Source: Gammaproteobacteria bacterium (GTDB taxonomy: Bacteria; Pseudomonadota; Gammaproteobacteria; Enterobacterales; Kangiellaceae). From it: DNA of 64,000 bases. The stretch spans positions 4,683 to 68,682 of the forward strand of contig JABXHQ010000004.1 in NCBI GenBank assembly GCA_013373545.1, written 5' to 3'. The position numbers and the translations under genes are program-made. The notes beneath the pieces are model-generated. The model was not told the origin of the DNA, did not search any database, and saw nothing but the letters and a program-made list of their open reading frames with translations. Positions 9,602 to 53,544 of the stretch are shown here, in pieces (the stretch's first letter is position 1; each line of letters opens with the position of its first letter).

Positions 9602-10918
9602 ATTCACCATGGGTTTATTACAAGGCAATGGCTTTTGGCTCGAATCGGCAATGGAATATATTTTCAGCTGTGCGGCCAAATTTTCCCCAAACTCATTAAA
9701 CTGAATGCGCCCACTGAAACCAGAGTATTGAAGCTGGCCGTGCTTTTTATATAAAGCACTGATGTTTTGATAATCCTTGTGAGAAATAGTTTGACCGGTG
9801 CCGGTCAACGCTTGCATCGCGTCTTTATAATCAATATTAAACTCCGCCACTAGCGTATTCGCCATTGCTAATAGTACCACGGCATCGTGCACATAAGCGG
9901 CGTCAAACCCGGCAGAATCGCGATTCAGCAGCGCCTTGATAGAATCTCTTAAGGTAGGATTTAAATCAGCTGGTGATGCAACATAGGTGTAAATGCACTG
10001 TGCGATGGTCCCCAGTTCAGCATCACGAATATATTTCGGCTTTACCGTGTCAGCGGCTAAAATCAAGGGTAAGTCGCCACGCCAATGGGTTCGGATTTTT
10101 TTTAACATCGCATTCATCTGTGCGGTTGGAAGGGTGATAACAATGGCCGTCGCGCCACTGTCTTGAATTCGATTCACCTCTTCTTGTAAATTCATGCCCT
10201 CGAGATACACAAGGTGGCTTAAGCTTAAATGCTCAATTACCCCACCGGCAACGCCCGTCATTTTATTTTCTAAACCCGCTAATAACTCTTGGCTGTATAA
10301 ATCGCGCCCCGCTACCACGTACAGTTTGCGATGGTTCATTTGTTCGGTGAGAAACTGATGAATAAAAGTTACTTGTTGCTCATTGTTTGCAACCATGCGC
10401 CAAAACAGTTGCTGCTTACTAAGGTGTGCTAGCTCAACGGCTGAAGCGGCTTGAGTGATTAAGGGAATCTTCTTCGGTATTGCAACCTTCTTTAGCACAT
10501 CTTCGACACTGTTTGACGTCGCCGGACCGACCAGCGCTTGCACGTCATAATCGGCTATCAAAGTGTGAGCTAGCCGAGCCGACACCGGGGTATTTTCTTC
10601 ATCGTCAGCGCGCAAAACAACCAACCGCTTACCGCGGATCCCGCCATGTCGATTGATCCACTCAGTCGCCACATCGGCGGCCGCAATAATCTCTCCAGAA
10701 TAAACCGGGAAACTGCTGATAGGGGCAAGAATAGCAAAATGGATCGTATCCGTAGCCATTTTGTTATTGTCGGGCTGAGTGATCACCATTGAACCACGAT
10801 CCCGTTCTAATGGGATATTCATCAATTCCTTGATGGAAAGTGATTTAAGTTCATCTTCCGGCTCTGCAAACAACGGCATAGCGATTAATGAACTCAACAC
10901 GATCAACAGTATGCGCAT
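9590..10918 (-). CDS. Periplasmic binding protein type 1 (branched-chain amino acid/LivJ-like), orphan
   Basis: Signal peptide; 'INRHGGIRGKRLVVLRADDE', 'ALVGPATS', 'AAYVHDAV', 'YSGFSGRIQFNEFG'. Confidence 0.8.
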   Translation of the reverse strand: MRILLIVLSSLIAMPLFAEPEDELKSLSIKELMNIPLERDRGSMVITQPDNNKMATDTIHFAILAPISSFPVYSGEIIAAADVATEWINRHGGIRGKRLVVLRADDEENTPVSARLAHTLIADYDVQALVGPATSNSVEDVLKKVAIPKKIPLITQAASAVELAHLSKQQLFWRMVANNEQQVTFIHQFLTEQMNHRKLYVVAGRDLYSQELLAGLENKMTGVAGGVIEHLSLSHLVYLEGMNLQEEVNRIQDSGATAIVITLPTAQMNAMLKKIRTHWRGDLPLILAADTVKPKYIRDAELGTIAQCIYTYVASPADLNPTLRDSIKALLNRDSAGFDAAYVHDAVVLLAMANTLVAEFNIDYKDAMQALTGTGQTISHKDYQNISALYKKHGQLQYSGFSGRIQFNEFGENLAAQLKIYSIADSSQKPLPCNKPMVNSGP

Positions 10919-20195: not shown

Positions 20196-22325
20196 CTATT
20201 TTTTCGGCGCTTTAGGTGCCAGCAACAGCAAATCGACCTCACCCTCAAGGGTTTGTGTGCCGATATACCATTGACCATGGTTGGGAACGGAAATGCGAGA
20301 GCCATTCAAATCGCGATCAATCAATTGTATTTGTTGACTGTCATGCGCTAGAAAGTAAAGGGTATCGTTTTGAGTAAAGTAGAGCCCCTGATCGGTGGCG
20401 CTCCAGCGACCAGTTTTGTTTATCGACTGCTCCACCGGAAAAAAGACTTTTTCGGCTTCCGGATCTTGCGGGACCCGCCAAAATCCATTGATCTTAAAGT
20501 TAGCCACGTAGGTTAACTCAGTACCCGGCGCTTCGAGCACGATAAAAGCATCATTCGGCAGTTTGGGCACTTCGTCATATTCGCCGTTGATTCCAATAAC
20601 GGTTTGCTCCCATTGCTCCATATGCTTAACCGCAACGAAAGCACTGGTACTATCACGGCGCCATTGAAAGTTTTTATAATAGCGATTCTGATCACCCCAG
20701 ATAATTTCATTACTTTCATTATCAATAATGAACCATCGACCACTGGCCGTGCCTCCCAAAAACTGCGAATTAGGAGAAAAGCTTAAATCGGTAAACTTAA
20801 GATTATTTTTTAAATAGGTAAGTTGCCGTGAATGCCCTTGTTCGTCACGGATCCAAACTTGATAGACCCCGGAGCGATTACTCACCCAAGCCAACTGCAT
20901 GCCATCCATGGAGACCGCGGGTAAAAAGTCTTGATAAGAAGAGCTTTCGACTTTCTCAACTTTCTCTTGTGACAGGTAGTGTTGCAAGAGGTCGCTCTTA
21001 AAATAACTACCTGAGGCATACACTAGACTGCCATCTTTAAGGACCATTGGCGCCAGAATAGGAGTCTCGGCGCGGGTTAAAATACTAATAAAACCGCGAG
21101 TTACATCGTATTCAAGGATCTCATTGGAGTCATTCTTAAAAATTATTTTTTCGTTACCAAACCACTCAACGGTATGTAATACCGAATCTACGGTTTCAAT
21201 CAGCTGGGTTTCCCACGTGCGCGTGTCGTAAAGCCATACCTCGGTTTGAGACCAGTTTTTGTTCCGCAGCACCGCCAAAGAAAGTCCATCTTGGCTAACA
21301 GAGAAGTAATAATCCCCTTTACCACTTGGGGGCGGCGAAGCGATTGGCCAGCTCTCTCCGCTACTGAAAGAGTGAGAATAAATAATAAACGGTTCGTTCA
21401 CCGATTTCGCACGGTTAAAATACATTCCTTGCTCATCGTTCCACAGGTGTCCTTGAGCCGTTTGTGAAAAAGTATTACAAGCCACCAATTGACGCTCATC
21501 GACGACCGCACGTTTAACCGCATCAAAACTGGCTATATAAAAGTGACAAGCCTGATCTTCAAAACGTGAAAAAATAAATTTGTTTTTTGCTGTCCAGCGC
21601 GGCAGCCTTTCGTAGCGATCCCCTTGACTTAATTTAATTAAATCTCCGGTTTTCATATCACGCACATAGACTTGCCAAAAAACCTGACCTTCTGGCTTAT
21701 GATTGAATAACATCCAGCGTTGATCCGCTGAAATTGAGGGGTAATTTTCGATCCCTTTAAAATGGCTTAAGGGCATTGCGGTTTCATATTCTTGTTGCAT
21801 GACTGCGCCACGCATAGATTCACGAAACCCATCGAACCAATACCAACCAAACAAAAAAACCGACACACTGGCGGCAATAAAGGCACCAAGTGCCCAAAAG
21901 TATTTGTCTTTAATTGGCAGTCCGGCAATGATGTCATCGTCGAGAAATTGCACCGGAGCGATCAACCGATAGCCGTGTCCCAGTTTATTCTCGATGTACT
22001 TTTTCTCTTTATCAGTATCATCGAACAGTTTACGCAAAACGGTAACTTGCTTGCGCGTAGATGAATCATCTTTATATTGATTGCCGTAAATAAACTTATG
22101 AATATCATTTAATGAAACATAAGAGTTGGAGTTTTCTAACAGCAATAACAATAGTCGAATGGAGTTGGGAGTGATGTTACGAACTTCGCCGCTCTCAGTG
22201 GTCACGGTCTTTTCATTAAAATCGATGACGCAATCGCCGATCTGGATCGGATGAGCGCTCCAGTCATCGAACAAATCGTGTTCTTGCTTGCTTTCTGTTT
22301 GTGAAGAAGGCAACTCTGTCATCAA
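20196..22325 (-). CDS. Membrane-anchored one-component regulator: OmpR/CadC-type winged-helix, single TM helix, periplasmic TolB-like beta-propeller (PD40-like repeats)
   Basis: wHTH 'STRKQVTVLRKLF...YIENKLGHGYRL'; TM 'YFWALGAFIAASVSVFLFGWYWF'; repeats 'YPSISADQRWMLF', 'FSVSQDGLSLAV', 'PAVSMDGMQLAWVSNRSG', 'LSFSPNSQFL'. Confidence 0.88.
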   Translation of the reverse strand: MMTELPSSQTESKQEHDLFDDWSAHPIQIGDCVIDFNEKTVTTESGEVRNITPNSIRLLLLLLENSNSYVSLNDIHKFIYGNQYKDDSSTRKQVTVLRKLFDDTDKEKKYIENKLGHGYRLIAPVQFLDDDIIAGLPIKDKYFWALGAFIAASVSVFLFGWYWFDGFRESMRGAVMQQEYETAMPLSHFKGIENYPSISADQRWMLFNHKPEGQVFWQVYVRDMKTGDLIKLSQGDRYERLPRWTAKNKFIFSRFEDQACHFYIASFDAVKRAVVDERQLVACNTFSQTAQGHLWNDEQGMYFNRAKSVNEPFIIYSHSFSSGESWPIASPPPSGKGDYYFSVSQDGLSLAVLRNKNWSQTEVWLYDTRTWETQLIETVDSVLHTVEWFGNEKIIFKNDSNEILEYDVTRGFISILTRAETPILAPMVLKDGSLVYASGSYFKSDLLQHYLSQEKVEKVESSSYQDFLPAVSMDGMQLAWVSNRSGVYQVWIRDEQGHSRQLTYLKNNLKFTDLSFSPNSQFLGGTASGRWFIIDNESNEIIWGDQNRYYKNFQWRRDSTSAFVAVKHMEQWEQTVIGINGEYDEVPKLPNDAFIVLEAPGTELTYVANFKINGFWRVPQDPEAEKVFFPVEQSINKTGRWSATDQGLYFTQNDTLYFLAHDSQQIQLIDRDLNGSRISVPNHGQWYIGTQTLEGEVDLLLLAPKAPKK

Positions 22326-22545: not shown

Positions 22546-22830
22546 TTACGCAAATTCCTCGAGCATTAATAGCCACATTAGAAAAGTCATGACCACTAAG
22601 CCAATCACCGACCACGTCAAAGGCGTTGACATCTCCCCGAGAAAAGTTAACGAAGGCGCCCACTGTACCAGTGCGCTGACACCGAGTATTGCGCACACTA
22701 ATGCCGCCACGCCACACAAGGTTAGTATCCAGTAACGGCGCTTTAATTGTACATTAAGGCGCTGATTGAACGCGTCAATAAAGCCGCGATCAGACAAGGT
22801 TTGGTGATAAGCCAGTAATTTTTCTAGCAT
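22546..22830 (-). CDS. Small two-TM membrane protein, putative anti-sigma factor
   Basis: GGAGG RBS before ATG 22830; charged N-terminus and two hydrophobic helices; directly downstream of the ECF sigma. Confidence 0.6.
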   Translation of the reverse strand: MLEKLLAYHQTLSDRGFIDAFNQRLNVQLKRRYWILTLCGVAALVCAILGVSALVQWAPSLTFLGEMSTPLTWSVIGLVVMTFLMWLLMLEEFA

Positions 22831-22849
22831 CCTATTTTCCTCCAATCGA

Positions 22850-23407
22850 TTAAGCCACAGCTTCAGCATCTATAATTTGATGCAGTTTGCGTTTCGCCCG
22901 CGCAATGTGTGACTTTACCGTACCTAACGGCATTCCCGTCACTTCGGTAATTTCGCCATGGCTCATACCTTCACTACAATTTAACGTCAGGGTTAGCCGT
23001 TCTTCAACCGATAAATGGCTCATCAATTTCTCGGCCAAAATATCGGCTTCAACAGCATCTCGAGACTCTAATTGTTGCCAGCTAATATCACAGGGCGTTT
23101 CGTACTTTTCTGCACCAGTTGTAACCACTCGAATAAAGCGGTTGTATGCCAAACGCCTCAACCAACCGGCAAAACTACCGGTTCCTTTAAATTGCGCTAG
23201 GTTCTGATAAGCCAGCATGAAACTATCTTGCGCCACATCATCAGCTAAGGCGTAATCACCCGCTGATATACGGCGCAAAAACTGCCGAAGTGCTGACTGA
23301 TGATGAGCAACCAGCTGAGAAAAAGCCGATTGCTCACCGTTTAGTGCTCTTGCGATCAAGAGACGATCTCGTTCCATGCGCCAACCTATTGGTCGTGTTT
23401 CAATCAT
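22850..23407 (-). CDS. ECF (group 4) RNA polymerase sigma-70 factor
   Basis: Region 2 'ADDVAQDSFMLAY..L.QFKG..SFAGWLRRLAYN'; region 4 'GMSHGEITEVTGMPLGTVKSHIARAK'. ATG overlaps the upstream stop codon. Confidence 0.92.
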   Translation of the reverse strand: MIETRPIGWRMERDRLLIARALNGEQSAFSQLVAHHQSALRQFLRRISAGDYALADDVAQDSFMLAYQNLAQFKGTGSFAGWLRRLAYNRFIRVVTTGAEKYETPCDISWQQLESRDAVEADILAEKLMSHLSVEERLTLTLNCSEGMSHGEITEVTGMPLGTVKSHIARAKRKLHQIIDAEAVA

Positions 23408-23765
23408 TATAGCGATTTAATTTCCAAACCAATAGGAATCCAATGCCAACAAACATTGGAAACAAGGACAGCATCATAAACACTACTCGAGCGTCTGGCT
23501 CATCCATAATTAAGCCCGCACAAAAACCGGCTAACCCAATGGCCGTTGCGACTACGCCACGGCGAAGATCTTTAACTCTTGGCGAATGAGTTCCCGCCAA
23601 CTTTTCTAATAGCTCAGGGGTTAGGGATTGTCCTTGATCGATGGAATGCCTGATCGTCTGTTGAATACCTTCTTTATTCTTCTTTGAGTAATAGAAAAAG
23701 GTTATCAACACAGCCGCGATGGCCAAAAACATTGTAATAGGAATAAAAATTTCAACGGAATTCAT
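23400..23765 (-). CDS. DUF6249-like membrane protein
   Basis: 'IFIPITMF', 'TIRHSIDQGQSLTPELL', 'DLRRGVV..AIGLA', 'PMFVGIGFLL'. Confidence 0.7.
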   Translation of the reverse strand: MNSVEIFIPITMFLAIAAVLITFFYYSKKNKEGIQQTIRHSIDQGQSLTPELLEKLAGTHSPRVKDLRRGVVATAIGLAGFCAGLIMDEPDARVVFMMLSLFPMFVGIGFLLVWKLNRYND

Positions 23766-23836
23766 AGTAAGTCCTCATCCAAAAGTGATTCTATTTAAAT
23801 AGAGACACTGCGCCGATGATTTAGATGAGATAAACT

Positions 23837-23874
23837 AAAAAAAACCCGCAGGAGGAGAGCTCAACGCTGCGGGT
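23837..23874 (-). terminator. Intrinsic terminator
   Basis: Minus strand ACCCGCAG / CTGCGGGT 8-bp stem followed by a U run (A8 at 23837-23844 on the plus strand, first base shared with the stem). Confidence 0.8.
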
Positions 23875-24042
23875 GGAAAGATGAGCGAATGATTAGGGCG
23901 CAGGCGCAATCGTCCAAATCGGCCAAAAGGCAATTAATGCACTGTTCCGGCAACGGAACGGTTGTGGCCTTTCGACCAGGGAACCGACGAGGACGCCATA
24001 GTCGCTCAAAACTCAGGGTTGAGTCTGGAGTCTCATCCCTAA
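23837..24042 (-). ncRNA. Candidate free-standing structured non-coding RNA (family not recognised)
   Basis: Bounded by a sigma70-like promoter (TTGTGC-N18-TAGTAT) and a strong terminator; several nested helices, a GAAA tetraloop hairpin, 5'/3' end complementarity; no convincing ORF. Confidence 0.55.
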
Positions 24043-24109
24043 GAAACATACTACTACAACAAACACTACTTGCACAAGTAGCTTTTCAAGTATTTACATT
24101 AGGAATGTT

Positions 24110-24613
24110 ATGAGTCACACACTGAACATTGCCAAGGCCACGTCAGATAACCAGCTGAAAGCGATCGAAGCCTTGGCAGAGACTATCTGGGCGGAACATT
24201 ACACACCTATAATTGGCGCTGCACAGGTGTCTTACATGTTAGAAAAATTCCAAAGTTACCCCGCTATGAAGCATCAAATTGAGCAAGAGAATACGCTATA
24301 TTTCCAGTTGCACGCCCTCTCGGAGTTGGTTGGGTATTTCGCAGTTAAGCCAACGGCAGAGCATCTGTTTCTCAGTAAACTTTACCTGGCAAGCAATGCG
24401 CGAGGACAGGGTTTTGCTAAACAAGCCCTCGACTTCATCAAGCGCTTGGCTAACGAGCATGGATTATCCACAATAGTGTTAACCGTTAACAAATATAACC
24501 ACCTTGCCATCAATGCGTATCAAGCTCTTGGCTTTGAAAATGTAGCCGAAGTAGTAGCCGACATTGGCAACGGTTATATCATGGATGATTTCCGCTTAGA
24601 GCTACACTGCTAA
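24110..24613 (+). CDS. GNAT family N-acetyltransferase
   Basis: 'LSKLYLASNARGQGFA', 'LTVNKYN..AI.AYQALGF', 'IGNGYIMDD'. Confidence 0.88.
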   Translation: MSHTLNIAKATSDNQLKAIEALAETIWAEHYTPIIGAAQVSYMLEKFQSYPAMKHQIEQENTLYFQLHALSELVGYFAVKPTAEHLFLSKLYLASNARGQGFAKQALDFIKRLANEHGLSTIVLTVNKYNHLAINAYQALGFENVAEVVADIGNGYIMDDFRLELHC

Positions 24614-53153: not shown

Positions 53154-53241
53154 GGGTTTAACCTCCGCTAATCCCATAAGTCAACCGGCGAGACCTCGCG
53201 GTTTACCAGCACCCTAACTTATGTGTCGATTAACGTGTGTT
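53154..53241 (-). ncRNA. rpsB 5' leader (t44 / S2 autoregulatory element)
   Basis: Minus strand ACACACG..ATCGACACAT..GGGTGC...TATGGGA...GGAGG..TAAACCC matches the remembered layout of the enterobacterial t44 leader upstream of rpsB. Confidence 0.8.
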
Positions 53242-53544
53242 TTAAGTTATCCGAATGGATTCTCCATCCGGGCGCGCTTTATACCATATCTAGCGCGTTG
53301 GAACAATCAAAACTATCCTTCTGTCAATGGCGCTACACCGTCAAAAAGAATGAGCATAGCGCGTCGCGCTGCCAAGGATGTAGAGCCACTAGACTACGCG
53401 GTGAATGTCGTCATCCAACACATCCACGCACGAAAAAGGTGCAACTCCCCTTTTCACAGCTTTTTTCTCACAAACGTGAAGTTATGTTGAAAAAGCATTA
53501 AAATCGCAGCAACTTTGTTAATCAGCATGAGAAACCTAAGTTCA

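Follow-up and report, generated by a model that had tools for sequence, protein, structure and literature searches.

A covarying structured RNA family upstream of the DUF6249-sigma factor operon in the Pleionea clade of the Kangiellaceae

The gap between a DUF6249 gene and a divergently transcribed GNAT acetyltransferase gene, located in a 64 kb stretch of Kangiellaceae DNA (contig JABXHQ010000004.1; the whole stretch is called here the window, and positions refer to it unless stated otherwise), contains a gene of approximately 206 nt for a structured non-coding RNA, which occupies positions 24042-23837 of the minus strand. An earlier reading of the same sequence (the original prediction) had proposed for this place an unrecognised structured RNA, about 200 nt long and equipped with a promoter and a terminator of its own. 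The analysis described here supports this proposal: the RNA has no match in Rfam and no conserved open reading frame (ORF), it folds better than expected, it has homologues with covarying helices, and transcripts of one orthologue were found. We conclude that the RNA belongs to a new, unnamed family that is restricted to the Pleionea clade of the Kangiellaceae.

The general layout of the locus was confirmed by reading the sequence. The gap between the DUF6249 gene (23400-23765, minus strand) and the GNAT gene (24110-24613, plus strand), both identified by Pfam, is 344 nt long and contains the promoter-like sequence TTGTGC-N18-TAGTAT, followed after about 200 nt by an 8-bp stem with a U run, as originally described. 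The RNA sequence occurs in a single copy in the window, and no plasmid or phage sequences matched it; a mobile-element or repeat origin was excluded on these two grounds. The DUF6249 protein of the window is 72% identical to its counterpart in Pleionea litopenaei, therefore the window can be assigned to a Pleionea-like member of the Kangiellaceae.

The whole window was searched with cmscan at gathering score against the 4227 families of Rfam 15. The sole match was a t44 RNA at 53156-53257, and none fell on the RNA described here. A permissive scan of positions 23700-24200 (E ≤ 10) yielded only fragments at chance level, the best of which had 23 bits against a threshold of 48.6, and no minus-strand match spanned the RNA body. 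Matches at gathering score were also absent from the 12 orthologous loci described below. The view that the RNA is different from 6S, SRP, tmRNA, RNase P, CsrB, GcvB, Spot42, RyhB/PrrF and the riboswitches, put forward originally, thus agrees with the lack of any match in Rfam 15. A search of the literature on DUF6249 and on small RNAs of Pleionea found nothing relevant.

Homologues of the RNA were identified in DNA fetched around DUF6249 homologues from genomes, metagenomes and assemblies. All Pleionea-clade loci found have the same arrangement: a divergent GNAT gene, a gap of approximately 340-650 nt, then the genes for DUF6249, an extracytoplasmic function (ECF) sigma factor and a small membrane protein. 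Each gap contains a promoter block and, 205-469 nt later, an intrinsic terminator. Twelve orthologues were found in this position, between the GNAT gene and the DUF6249-ECF sigma operon. The loci of Kangiella, Lysobacterales and other lineages have a short gap without the RNA unit, and the covariance model detected nothing there. When the RNA was compared by blastn and nhmmer with the related loci, the matches were limited to the promoter block, joined in a single locus by the 3' end; because direct sequence search recovered so little, homology of the RNA bodies was established from motifs, synteny and structure. The bodies of the orthologues are almost wholly diverged in sequence with pairing retained. 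A full-length MAFFT alignment was unusable in the variable regions, and modules were aligned separately instead.

One module consists of the closing helix, designated P3, and the terminator, which were aligned by MAFFT for 12 RNAs and compared with 500 column shuffles. In this alignment 91.1% of the cells were paired and 11 of the 19 pairs had changed on both sides; none of the 500 shuffles reached these values, and pairing dropped to 30-41% if the partner strand was slid by 1-3 columns. In the terminator stem alone, 8 of 10 pairs had changed on both sides and 95.7% of the cells were paired. Paired cells also amounted to 95.7%, with 12 doubly changed pairs, in the 5' domain that characterises one of the two architectures of the family (type B, see below), for which a model-guided alignment, fitted to the structure, was used. 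Homologues with covarying pairs, which had been named originally as a check on the RNA, therefore exist, and the paired changes are in P3, in the terminator and in the type B 5' domain. These results demonstrate that base pairing in the RNA has been under selection. The family is known from about 12 sequences of a single genus-level clade, and the statistical depth of these tests is accordingly modest.

The transcribed strand could be determined from sense-strand folding, conserved G-U pairs and U runs. All 11 RNAs tested folded better than their shuffled versions (z values between -2.8 and -5.8), and in every RNA the strand in the sense of DUF6249 folded better than its reverse complement (for example -105.5 versus -69.9 kcal/mol in the orthologue L001). 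Conserved G-U pairs were present in P1 and P2, the two helices of the type B 5' domain. No ORF was conserved in frame among the orthologues, and similarities between ORFs of orthologues other than the window could be traced to conserved nucleotide blocks read in different frames. It is highly improbable that the region is a small-protein gene or a conserved but non-functional spacer. Mechanically, ORFs can be drawn on both strands, one of 62 codons at 23861-24049 (minus strand) and one of 74 codons at 23889-24113 (plus strand), but they have no counterparts in the orthologous regions and no Pfam match, and the start of the 62-codon ORF falls inside the -10 box of the promoter. As for a spacer, neither the compensatory changes of pairs nor the excess of folding energy would be expected.

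A sigma-70-type promoter is predicted at 24048-24077 on the minus strand, with TTGTGC as -35 box (24077-24072), a spacer of 18 nt and TAGTAT as -10 box (24053-24048). Only 7 of 12 positions agree with the consensus, which is a weak match, and the promoter was missed by a simple promoter scan; it owes its credibility to conservation in the orthologues and not to its similarity to the consensus. Within the intergenic region, conservation across the Pleionea loci is highest in the promoter block (consensus ACTACTTGyATAAGTAGTGkTTGTTTTGCTAGTAT), and the promoter and the terminator are together its best-conserved features. Every orthologue has TTGYRY-N18-TAGTAT at a constant distance, to which most type B members add the extended -10 sequence TGCTAGTAT. 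With this promoter, the predicted 5' end of the RNA would be at 24040-24042, and the 3' end would lie within the run of eight U residues of the terminator. A sigma-54 promoter reading of TGGTTGTTTTGCT was rejected, the spacing between GG and GC being 9 nt and not 12.

The -35 box is overlapped by the palindrome CTACTTGTGCAAGTAG (CTACTT-N4-AAGTAG; 24066-24081, minus strand), which has the same position in all orthologues and of which there is only one exact copy in the window. An RNA hairpin formed by these residues was ruled out: the departures from symmetry seen in the relatives are not compensated, therefore the palindrome is a site in DNA. It is probably the binding site (operator) of a regulator, common to the RNA and the divergent GNAT gene. 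The distance from the palindrome to the GNAT start codon is 28 nt in the window (24066-24110), about 13 nt in P. litopenaei (locus L023, 2405-2440) and approximately 80-120 nt in other species. Because of the short distance, the GNAT promoter must either overlap the RNA promoter or sit inside the RNA gene. Competition between divergent promoters, or antisense overlap between GNAT and the 5' end of the RNA, is possible. Two strain variants, both from the same seawater study, were compared with the window. One had no changes in the 206-nt RNA body and five changes immediately upstream (24062-24090), all located in the promoter spacer, in the central part of the palindrome or further upstream. 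The other differed at one position, 24014, where U replaced G (C>A on the plus strand) in a wobble pair of the 5' hairpin.

Transcription was observed for the orthologue of P. mediterranea (locus L017). Two seawater metatranscriptomes contained one contig each, at 2714-2870 and 2716-2868 of the locus, with at least 99% identity. Both contigs lie wholly inside the predicted RNA (2703-2920), whereas the other 6.2 kb of the locus, with the GNAT, DUF6249 and sigma factor genes, yielded no contig. This shows that the RNA of P. mediterranea is abundant relative to its neighbours.

The predicted fold of the window RNA is unusually stable. The 206-nt stretch folds at -77.0 kcal/mol, compared to -57.9 ± 4.1 kcal/mol for dinucleotide shuffles (z = -4.6; none of 200 shuffles was as low), and a repetition of the shuffle test gave z = -4.9. 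The secondary structure drawn originally amounts to -55.1 kcal/mol in total, and of its six helices two were right, three were thermodynamically disfavoured and one was contradicted by comparison with the relatives. At the 5' end, the best fold contains the stem-loop SL1 (UUAGGG.UGAG / CUCA.CCCUGA; 24013-24042, minus strand), which is supported by the relatives and displays the loop ACUCCAGA (24031-24024), a candidate seed. The 5' hairpin drawn originally, ACTCA-ACCC-TGAGT, had a probability of 0.2, and the relatives, which keep CUCCAGA in the loop, speak for SL1 instead. P3, one of the two correct helices (TGAGCGA/TCGCTCA in DNA letters), is formed by the 5' strand UGAGCGA (24002-24008) and the 3' strand UCGCUCA (23882-23888), the latter followed by the CU-rich single strand UCUUUCC. 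Its pair probability is 0.65-0.77, the GUGAG-nnn sequences of all orthologues are homologues of its 5' strand, and the helix covaries in its extension.

P3 encloses a variable internal domain (23889-24001), the structure of which is mostly a thermodynamic prediction. It contains the second correct helix, the hairpin GUUCCG-UUGC-CGGAAC (23959-23944; GTTCCG-TTGC-CGGAAC in DNA), with pair probabilities of 0.94-1.0. The helices CGTCC/GGACG and TCGGTT/GGCCGA and the hairpin TGGTC-GAAA-GGCCA with its GNRA loop, also placed here originally, have probabilities of at most 0.02 and are displaced in the best fold by GGCGU/GCGCC, UCGUC/GACGA and a 12-pair helix, UGGUCGAAAGGC/GCCUUUUGGCCG, into which the GNRA hairpin is absorbed. 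No relative has a counterpart of the internal domain of the window, and all its helices other than the GUUCCG hairpin are thermodynamic predictions. Homology of this domain to helix P2 of type B appeared plausible by eye and was not supported by model search. Near the 3' end of the P3 loop is the motif CCCUAA (23893-23898), for which most orthologues have CCCUGAAA; the motif in either form is kept in 9 of the 12 RNAs. CCCUAA is complementary to the 5' end of the RNA, UUAGGG, and from this complementarity a pseudoknot (UUAGGG:CCCUAA) is possible.

The intrinsic terminator (23837-23874, minus strand) has a stem of 8 pairs between 23874 and 23844, A/CCCGCAG with CUGCGGG/U, the apical sequence GAGCUC and a U8 run (23844-23837). 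The apex (23852-23862 in the window) retains GAACGAGCUC, represented in the window by the self-complementary GAGCUC, although the stem covaries freely. This apex could serve for RNA contacts or for dimerisation, or else as a DNA site, placed about 45 nt ahead of the ECF-type -35 box described below.

Independent folding of the orthologues and dissection of their motifs revealed two architectures in RNAs of 205-469 nt. Type B comprises P. mediterranea (L017), P. sediminis (L004) and the metagenome-assembled genomes L001, L003, L105, L106, L108, L110, L111 and L117. These RNAs start with P1, a long 5' hairpin, the stem of which is wholly different in each lineage; its apical hairpin AGGCA-GGGG-UGUCU is invariant in all members except the divergent L106. 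P1 is followed by the junction UGGUGC and the covarying stem P2, with apical UUAGGC in most members. UUGUGAG then opens P3, the P3 loop of 24-117 nt usually ends in CCCUGAAA, and nnnCUCACCCUC closes P3. The terminator comes last, with a covarying stem and the conserved apex GAACGAGCUC.

Type A includes the window and P. litopenaei (L023) and, more loosely, L002 and L118. Here a short 5' hairpin with the loop (A)CUCCAGA is found in place of P1 and P2. The loop is carried by the stems UGAG/CUCA in the window, GGAAAG/CUUUCC in L023, GCUUAA/UUAGGC in L002 and UGCCGA/UUGGCA in L118. P3 directly follows the hairpin (UGAGCGA/UCGCUCA in the window, GUGAGUG/CACUCAC in L023). The model of the type B 5' domain did not match the window, L023 or L002. 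P3 encloses 119 nt in the window and 379 nt in L023, the range across the orthologues being 24-379 nt. Except for three type B RNAs of 205 nt, the RNA of the window is the most compact member of the family. At the other extreme, the orthologous RNA of P. litopenaei (CP133548.1; L023 2460-2928) is about 469 nt long due to the growth of the P3-enclosed region, and despite this expansion it still has the promoter, the 5' hairpin with the CUCCAGA loop, CCCUGAAA, P3 and the terminator.

In every Pleionea locus the structured RNA with its terminator is directly upstream of the DUF6249-ECF sigma operon and in the same orientation, and only about 10 nt separate the end of the terminator from the operon promoter. 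Such an arrangement would be expected of a cis-acting leader, a riboswitch or attenuator, in which case the sigma-70-type promoter would be the upstream promoter of the operon and the terminator would be opened conditionally. We consider this improbable, for several reasons. The operon has an ECF-type promoter of its own, CATCTAA-N14-GTCTCT (23801-23827, minus strand), which lies downstream of the RNA terminator, outside the RNA, and begins 10 nt past the U run. Of 93 loci searched over the 140 nt preceding DUF6249, 89 have a -35 box of the type GCATCCAA with at most 1 mismatch, and loci without the RNA are among them. The distance from the box to DUF6249 is 33-104 nt, in most cases 60-90 nt, and nearly all of the boxes have a -10 sequence resembling GTCTCT, GACTCT or CTTCTAA about 14-16 nt further on. 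The lineages having this box include the Kangiellaceae, Lysobacterales, Luteibacter, Microbulbifer and others, most of which lack the RNA. Such a -35/-10 arrangement upstream of the operon is the signature of an ECF promoter under autoregulation, here apparently that of an uncharacterised ECF group with DUF6249 as the first gene. A conserved antiterminator was not found either: in truncated folds, the 5' arm of the terminator had no partner in the window or L023, and its partners in other orthologues were not homologous. The separate promoter after the terminator and the lack of a conserved antiterminator together argue against a leader. In addition, the RNA has no fixed aptamer-like core, as its length varies from 205 to 469 nt and the two 5' domains are not homologous, and the metatranscriptome contigs end before the operon, for which coverage was zero. 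Taken together, these data indicate that the RNA is a unit independent of the operon.

The interpretation that we favour, with roughly even confidence, is that the RNA is an independent, trans-acting regulatory small RNA (sRNA) that acts by base pairing under the control of a regulator and represents a new, lineage-restricted family. According to this model, transcription would be initiated near 24041 from the sigma-70-type promoter, controlled by a regulator that probably binds the CTACTT-N4-AAGTAG palindrome on the -35 box, and would stop at the strong intrinsic terminator (23837), which leaves about 10 nt to the -35 box of the ECF operon. The transcript would fold into a 5' hairpin displaying the conserved C-rich loop ACUCCAGA, the closing helix UGAGCGA/UCGCUCA, which surrounds an internal domain that evolves fast and can expand, and the terminator hairpin with its U tail at the 3' end. 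Pairing with purine-rich ribosome-binding regions of target mRNAs would involve the conserved C/U-rich single strands, namely the CUCCAGA loop, CCCUAA and the CU-rich residues that separate P3 from the terminator. A chaperone such as Hfq would probably assist pairing, and the 3' terminal hairpin with U8 may serve as the chaperone-binding module.

Several observations weigh against the base-pairing sRNA. Within the window of 64 kb, sequences complementary to the CUCCAGA loop occurred only inside ORFs, and no target was identified among them; predicted pairing with the start regions of the neighbouring genes was inconsistent across species. (Duplex prediction with the whole RNA against the DUF6249 start region was discarded, as the long duplexes that it gave were meaningless.) The dependence on Hfq is purely inferred. 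The putative seed differs between the two architectures, CUCCAGA in type A and the hairpin AGGCA-GGGG-UGUCU in type B, which would be unusual for a single set of targets. Of the transcription called for originally, that of the P. mediterranea orthologue was detected, and no RNA runs holding the window's own sequence were found, nor any holding the L003 sequence. The L017 contigs themselves are shallow (depth about 3.7) and strandless, and their ends are assembly ends and not RNA termini. Finally, conserved loops and junctions on freely varying helices also fit an RNA that binds protein or has a tertiary fold.

The last point leads to a different mode of action, in which the RNA would work through its fold and not through a linear seed, either by binding protein, for instance a global RNA-binding protein or one belonging to the neighbouring sigma/anti-sigma system, or by a tertiary core with a pseudoknot. 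The conserved nucleotides are indeed concentrated in loops and junctions (AGGCA-GGGG-UGUCU, UGGUGC, UUGUGAG, CCCUGAAA, CUCACCCUC and the terminator apex GAACGAGCUC), while the helices vary in sequence and length in RNAs of 205 to 469 nt. There is loop-loop complementarity between CAGGG and CCCUG, of which UUAGGG/CCCUAA of the window represents a single compensatory change, and the fact that the RNA is the sole assembled transcript of the P. mediterranea locus would fit an abundant RNA of this kind. Nevertheless, we regard this mode of action as rather unlikely, taking into account that types A (to which the window belongs) and B do not have the 5' domain in common, that the type B model misses the window, that three orthologues lack CCCUG, that the pseudoknot is based on one compensatory event, and that repeated protein-binding motifs are absent, the window RNA having just three GGA triplets. 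A more specific form of it seems less probable still: a new class of folded regulatory RNA with a small, conserved and pseudoknotted core (YAGGG:CCCUR and GUGAG:CUCAC) and an expandable periphery, which is coupled, in physical or functional terms, to the DUF6249/ECF sigma/anti-sigma module of envelope signalling. The coupling could consist, for example, in the RNA binding a protein of the module or a small molecule and thereby setting the basal activity of the module.

The closest analogues of the proposed base-pairing sRNA are the Hfq-dependent trans-acting sRNAs of Gammaproteobacteria, which include the envelope-stress RNAs MicA, RybB, MicL and VrrA. Like these, the Pleionea RNA is encoded by a single-copy intergenic gene with a predicted promoter of its own and a terminator composed of a stem-loop and a U tail, it has conserved C/U-rich single strands that could pair with Shine-Dalgarno regions, it is lineage-restricted and fast-evolving outside the functional segments, and it adjoins an ECF sigma system. 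It has no sequence or model similarity to them, it is longer and more structured (205-469 nt), its internal domain can expand, and its 5' domain comes in two alternative forms. Whereas sRNAs of the MicA, RybB and VrrA type have a cognate ECF-type promoter, that of the Pleionea RNA is sigma-70-like and overlapped by a palindrome. In the RNA locus the ECF motif occurs only at 23827-23801 (a second match in the window, at 10203-10231 with 2 mismatches, is at chance level); since the RNA promoter does not have it, the RNA does not belong to the sigma-dependent sRNAs of the MicA/RybB type. With terminating riboswitches and attenuators the RNA shares the structured domain and intrinsic terminator upstream of an operon of the same direction; it differs from them by the conserved promoter between terminator and operon and by the lack of an antiterminator, a fixed aptamer and an Rfam match. 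The covarying helices of variable length, the conserved loop and junction nucleotides and the fixed neighbourhood are reminiscent of the 'motif' RNAs of Rfam, from which it is distinguished by its absence from Rfam 15 and its limitation to about 12 sequences of one genus-level clade. In contrast to the CsrB/RsmZ sponges, none of the three GGA triplets of the window RNA is in a repeated loop context.

A family of this kind is not surprising in itself, because lineage-specific sRNAs are common in bacteria, but its support is better than that of most lineage-restricted sRNA candidates. Pleionea and the Kangiellaceae are marine Gammaproteobacteria that have been poorly studied, and a well-supported, hitherto unnamed RNA family is now added to them. 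As the gene model is complete, with a promoter, an operator-like palindrome, covarying helices, a terminator and expression in a cultured species (type strain P. mediterranea DSM 25350), the family is directly testable. Its fixed position beside a widespread, uncharacterised DUF6249-ECF sigma module provides a handle on the regulation of that module. The family also illustrates that an sRNA gene can exchange its 5' domain and grow from 205 to 469 nt, yet keep its promoter, closing helix and terminator.

Some further features of the window were noted. Directly after the ECF sigma factor gene and overlapping it, a predicted membrane protein of 107 amino acids is encoded at 22546-22869 (minus strand). 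It has a weak match to DUF3040 (E = 1.5e-4, below the Pfam threshold), and its position suggests that it is an anti-sigma factor. Downstream of the ECF operon, at 20196-22325 (minus strand), there is a gene for a 709-amino-acid protein with an N-terminal winged helix of the OmpR/ToxR type (Trans_reg_C) and PD40/Tricorn-like beta-propeller repeats. This gene is syntenic in the Pleionea loci for which downstream sequence was available and is absent from the Kangiella-type loci checked; its product could be a candidate for the regulator that binds the palindrome. The t44 RNA mentioned above (RF00127; 53156-53257, minus strand) is a full-length match with 68.9 bits against a gathering score of 44.

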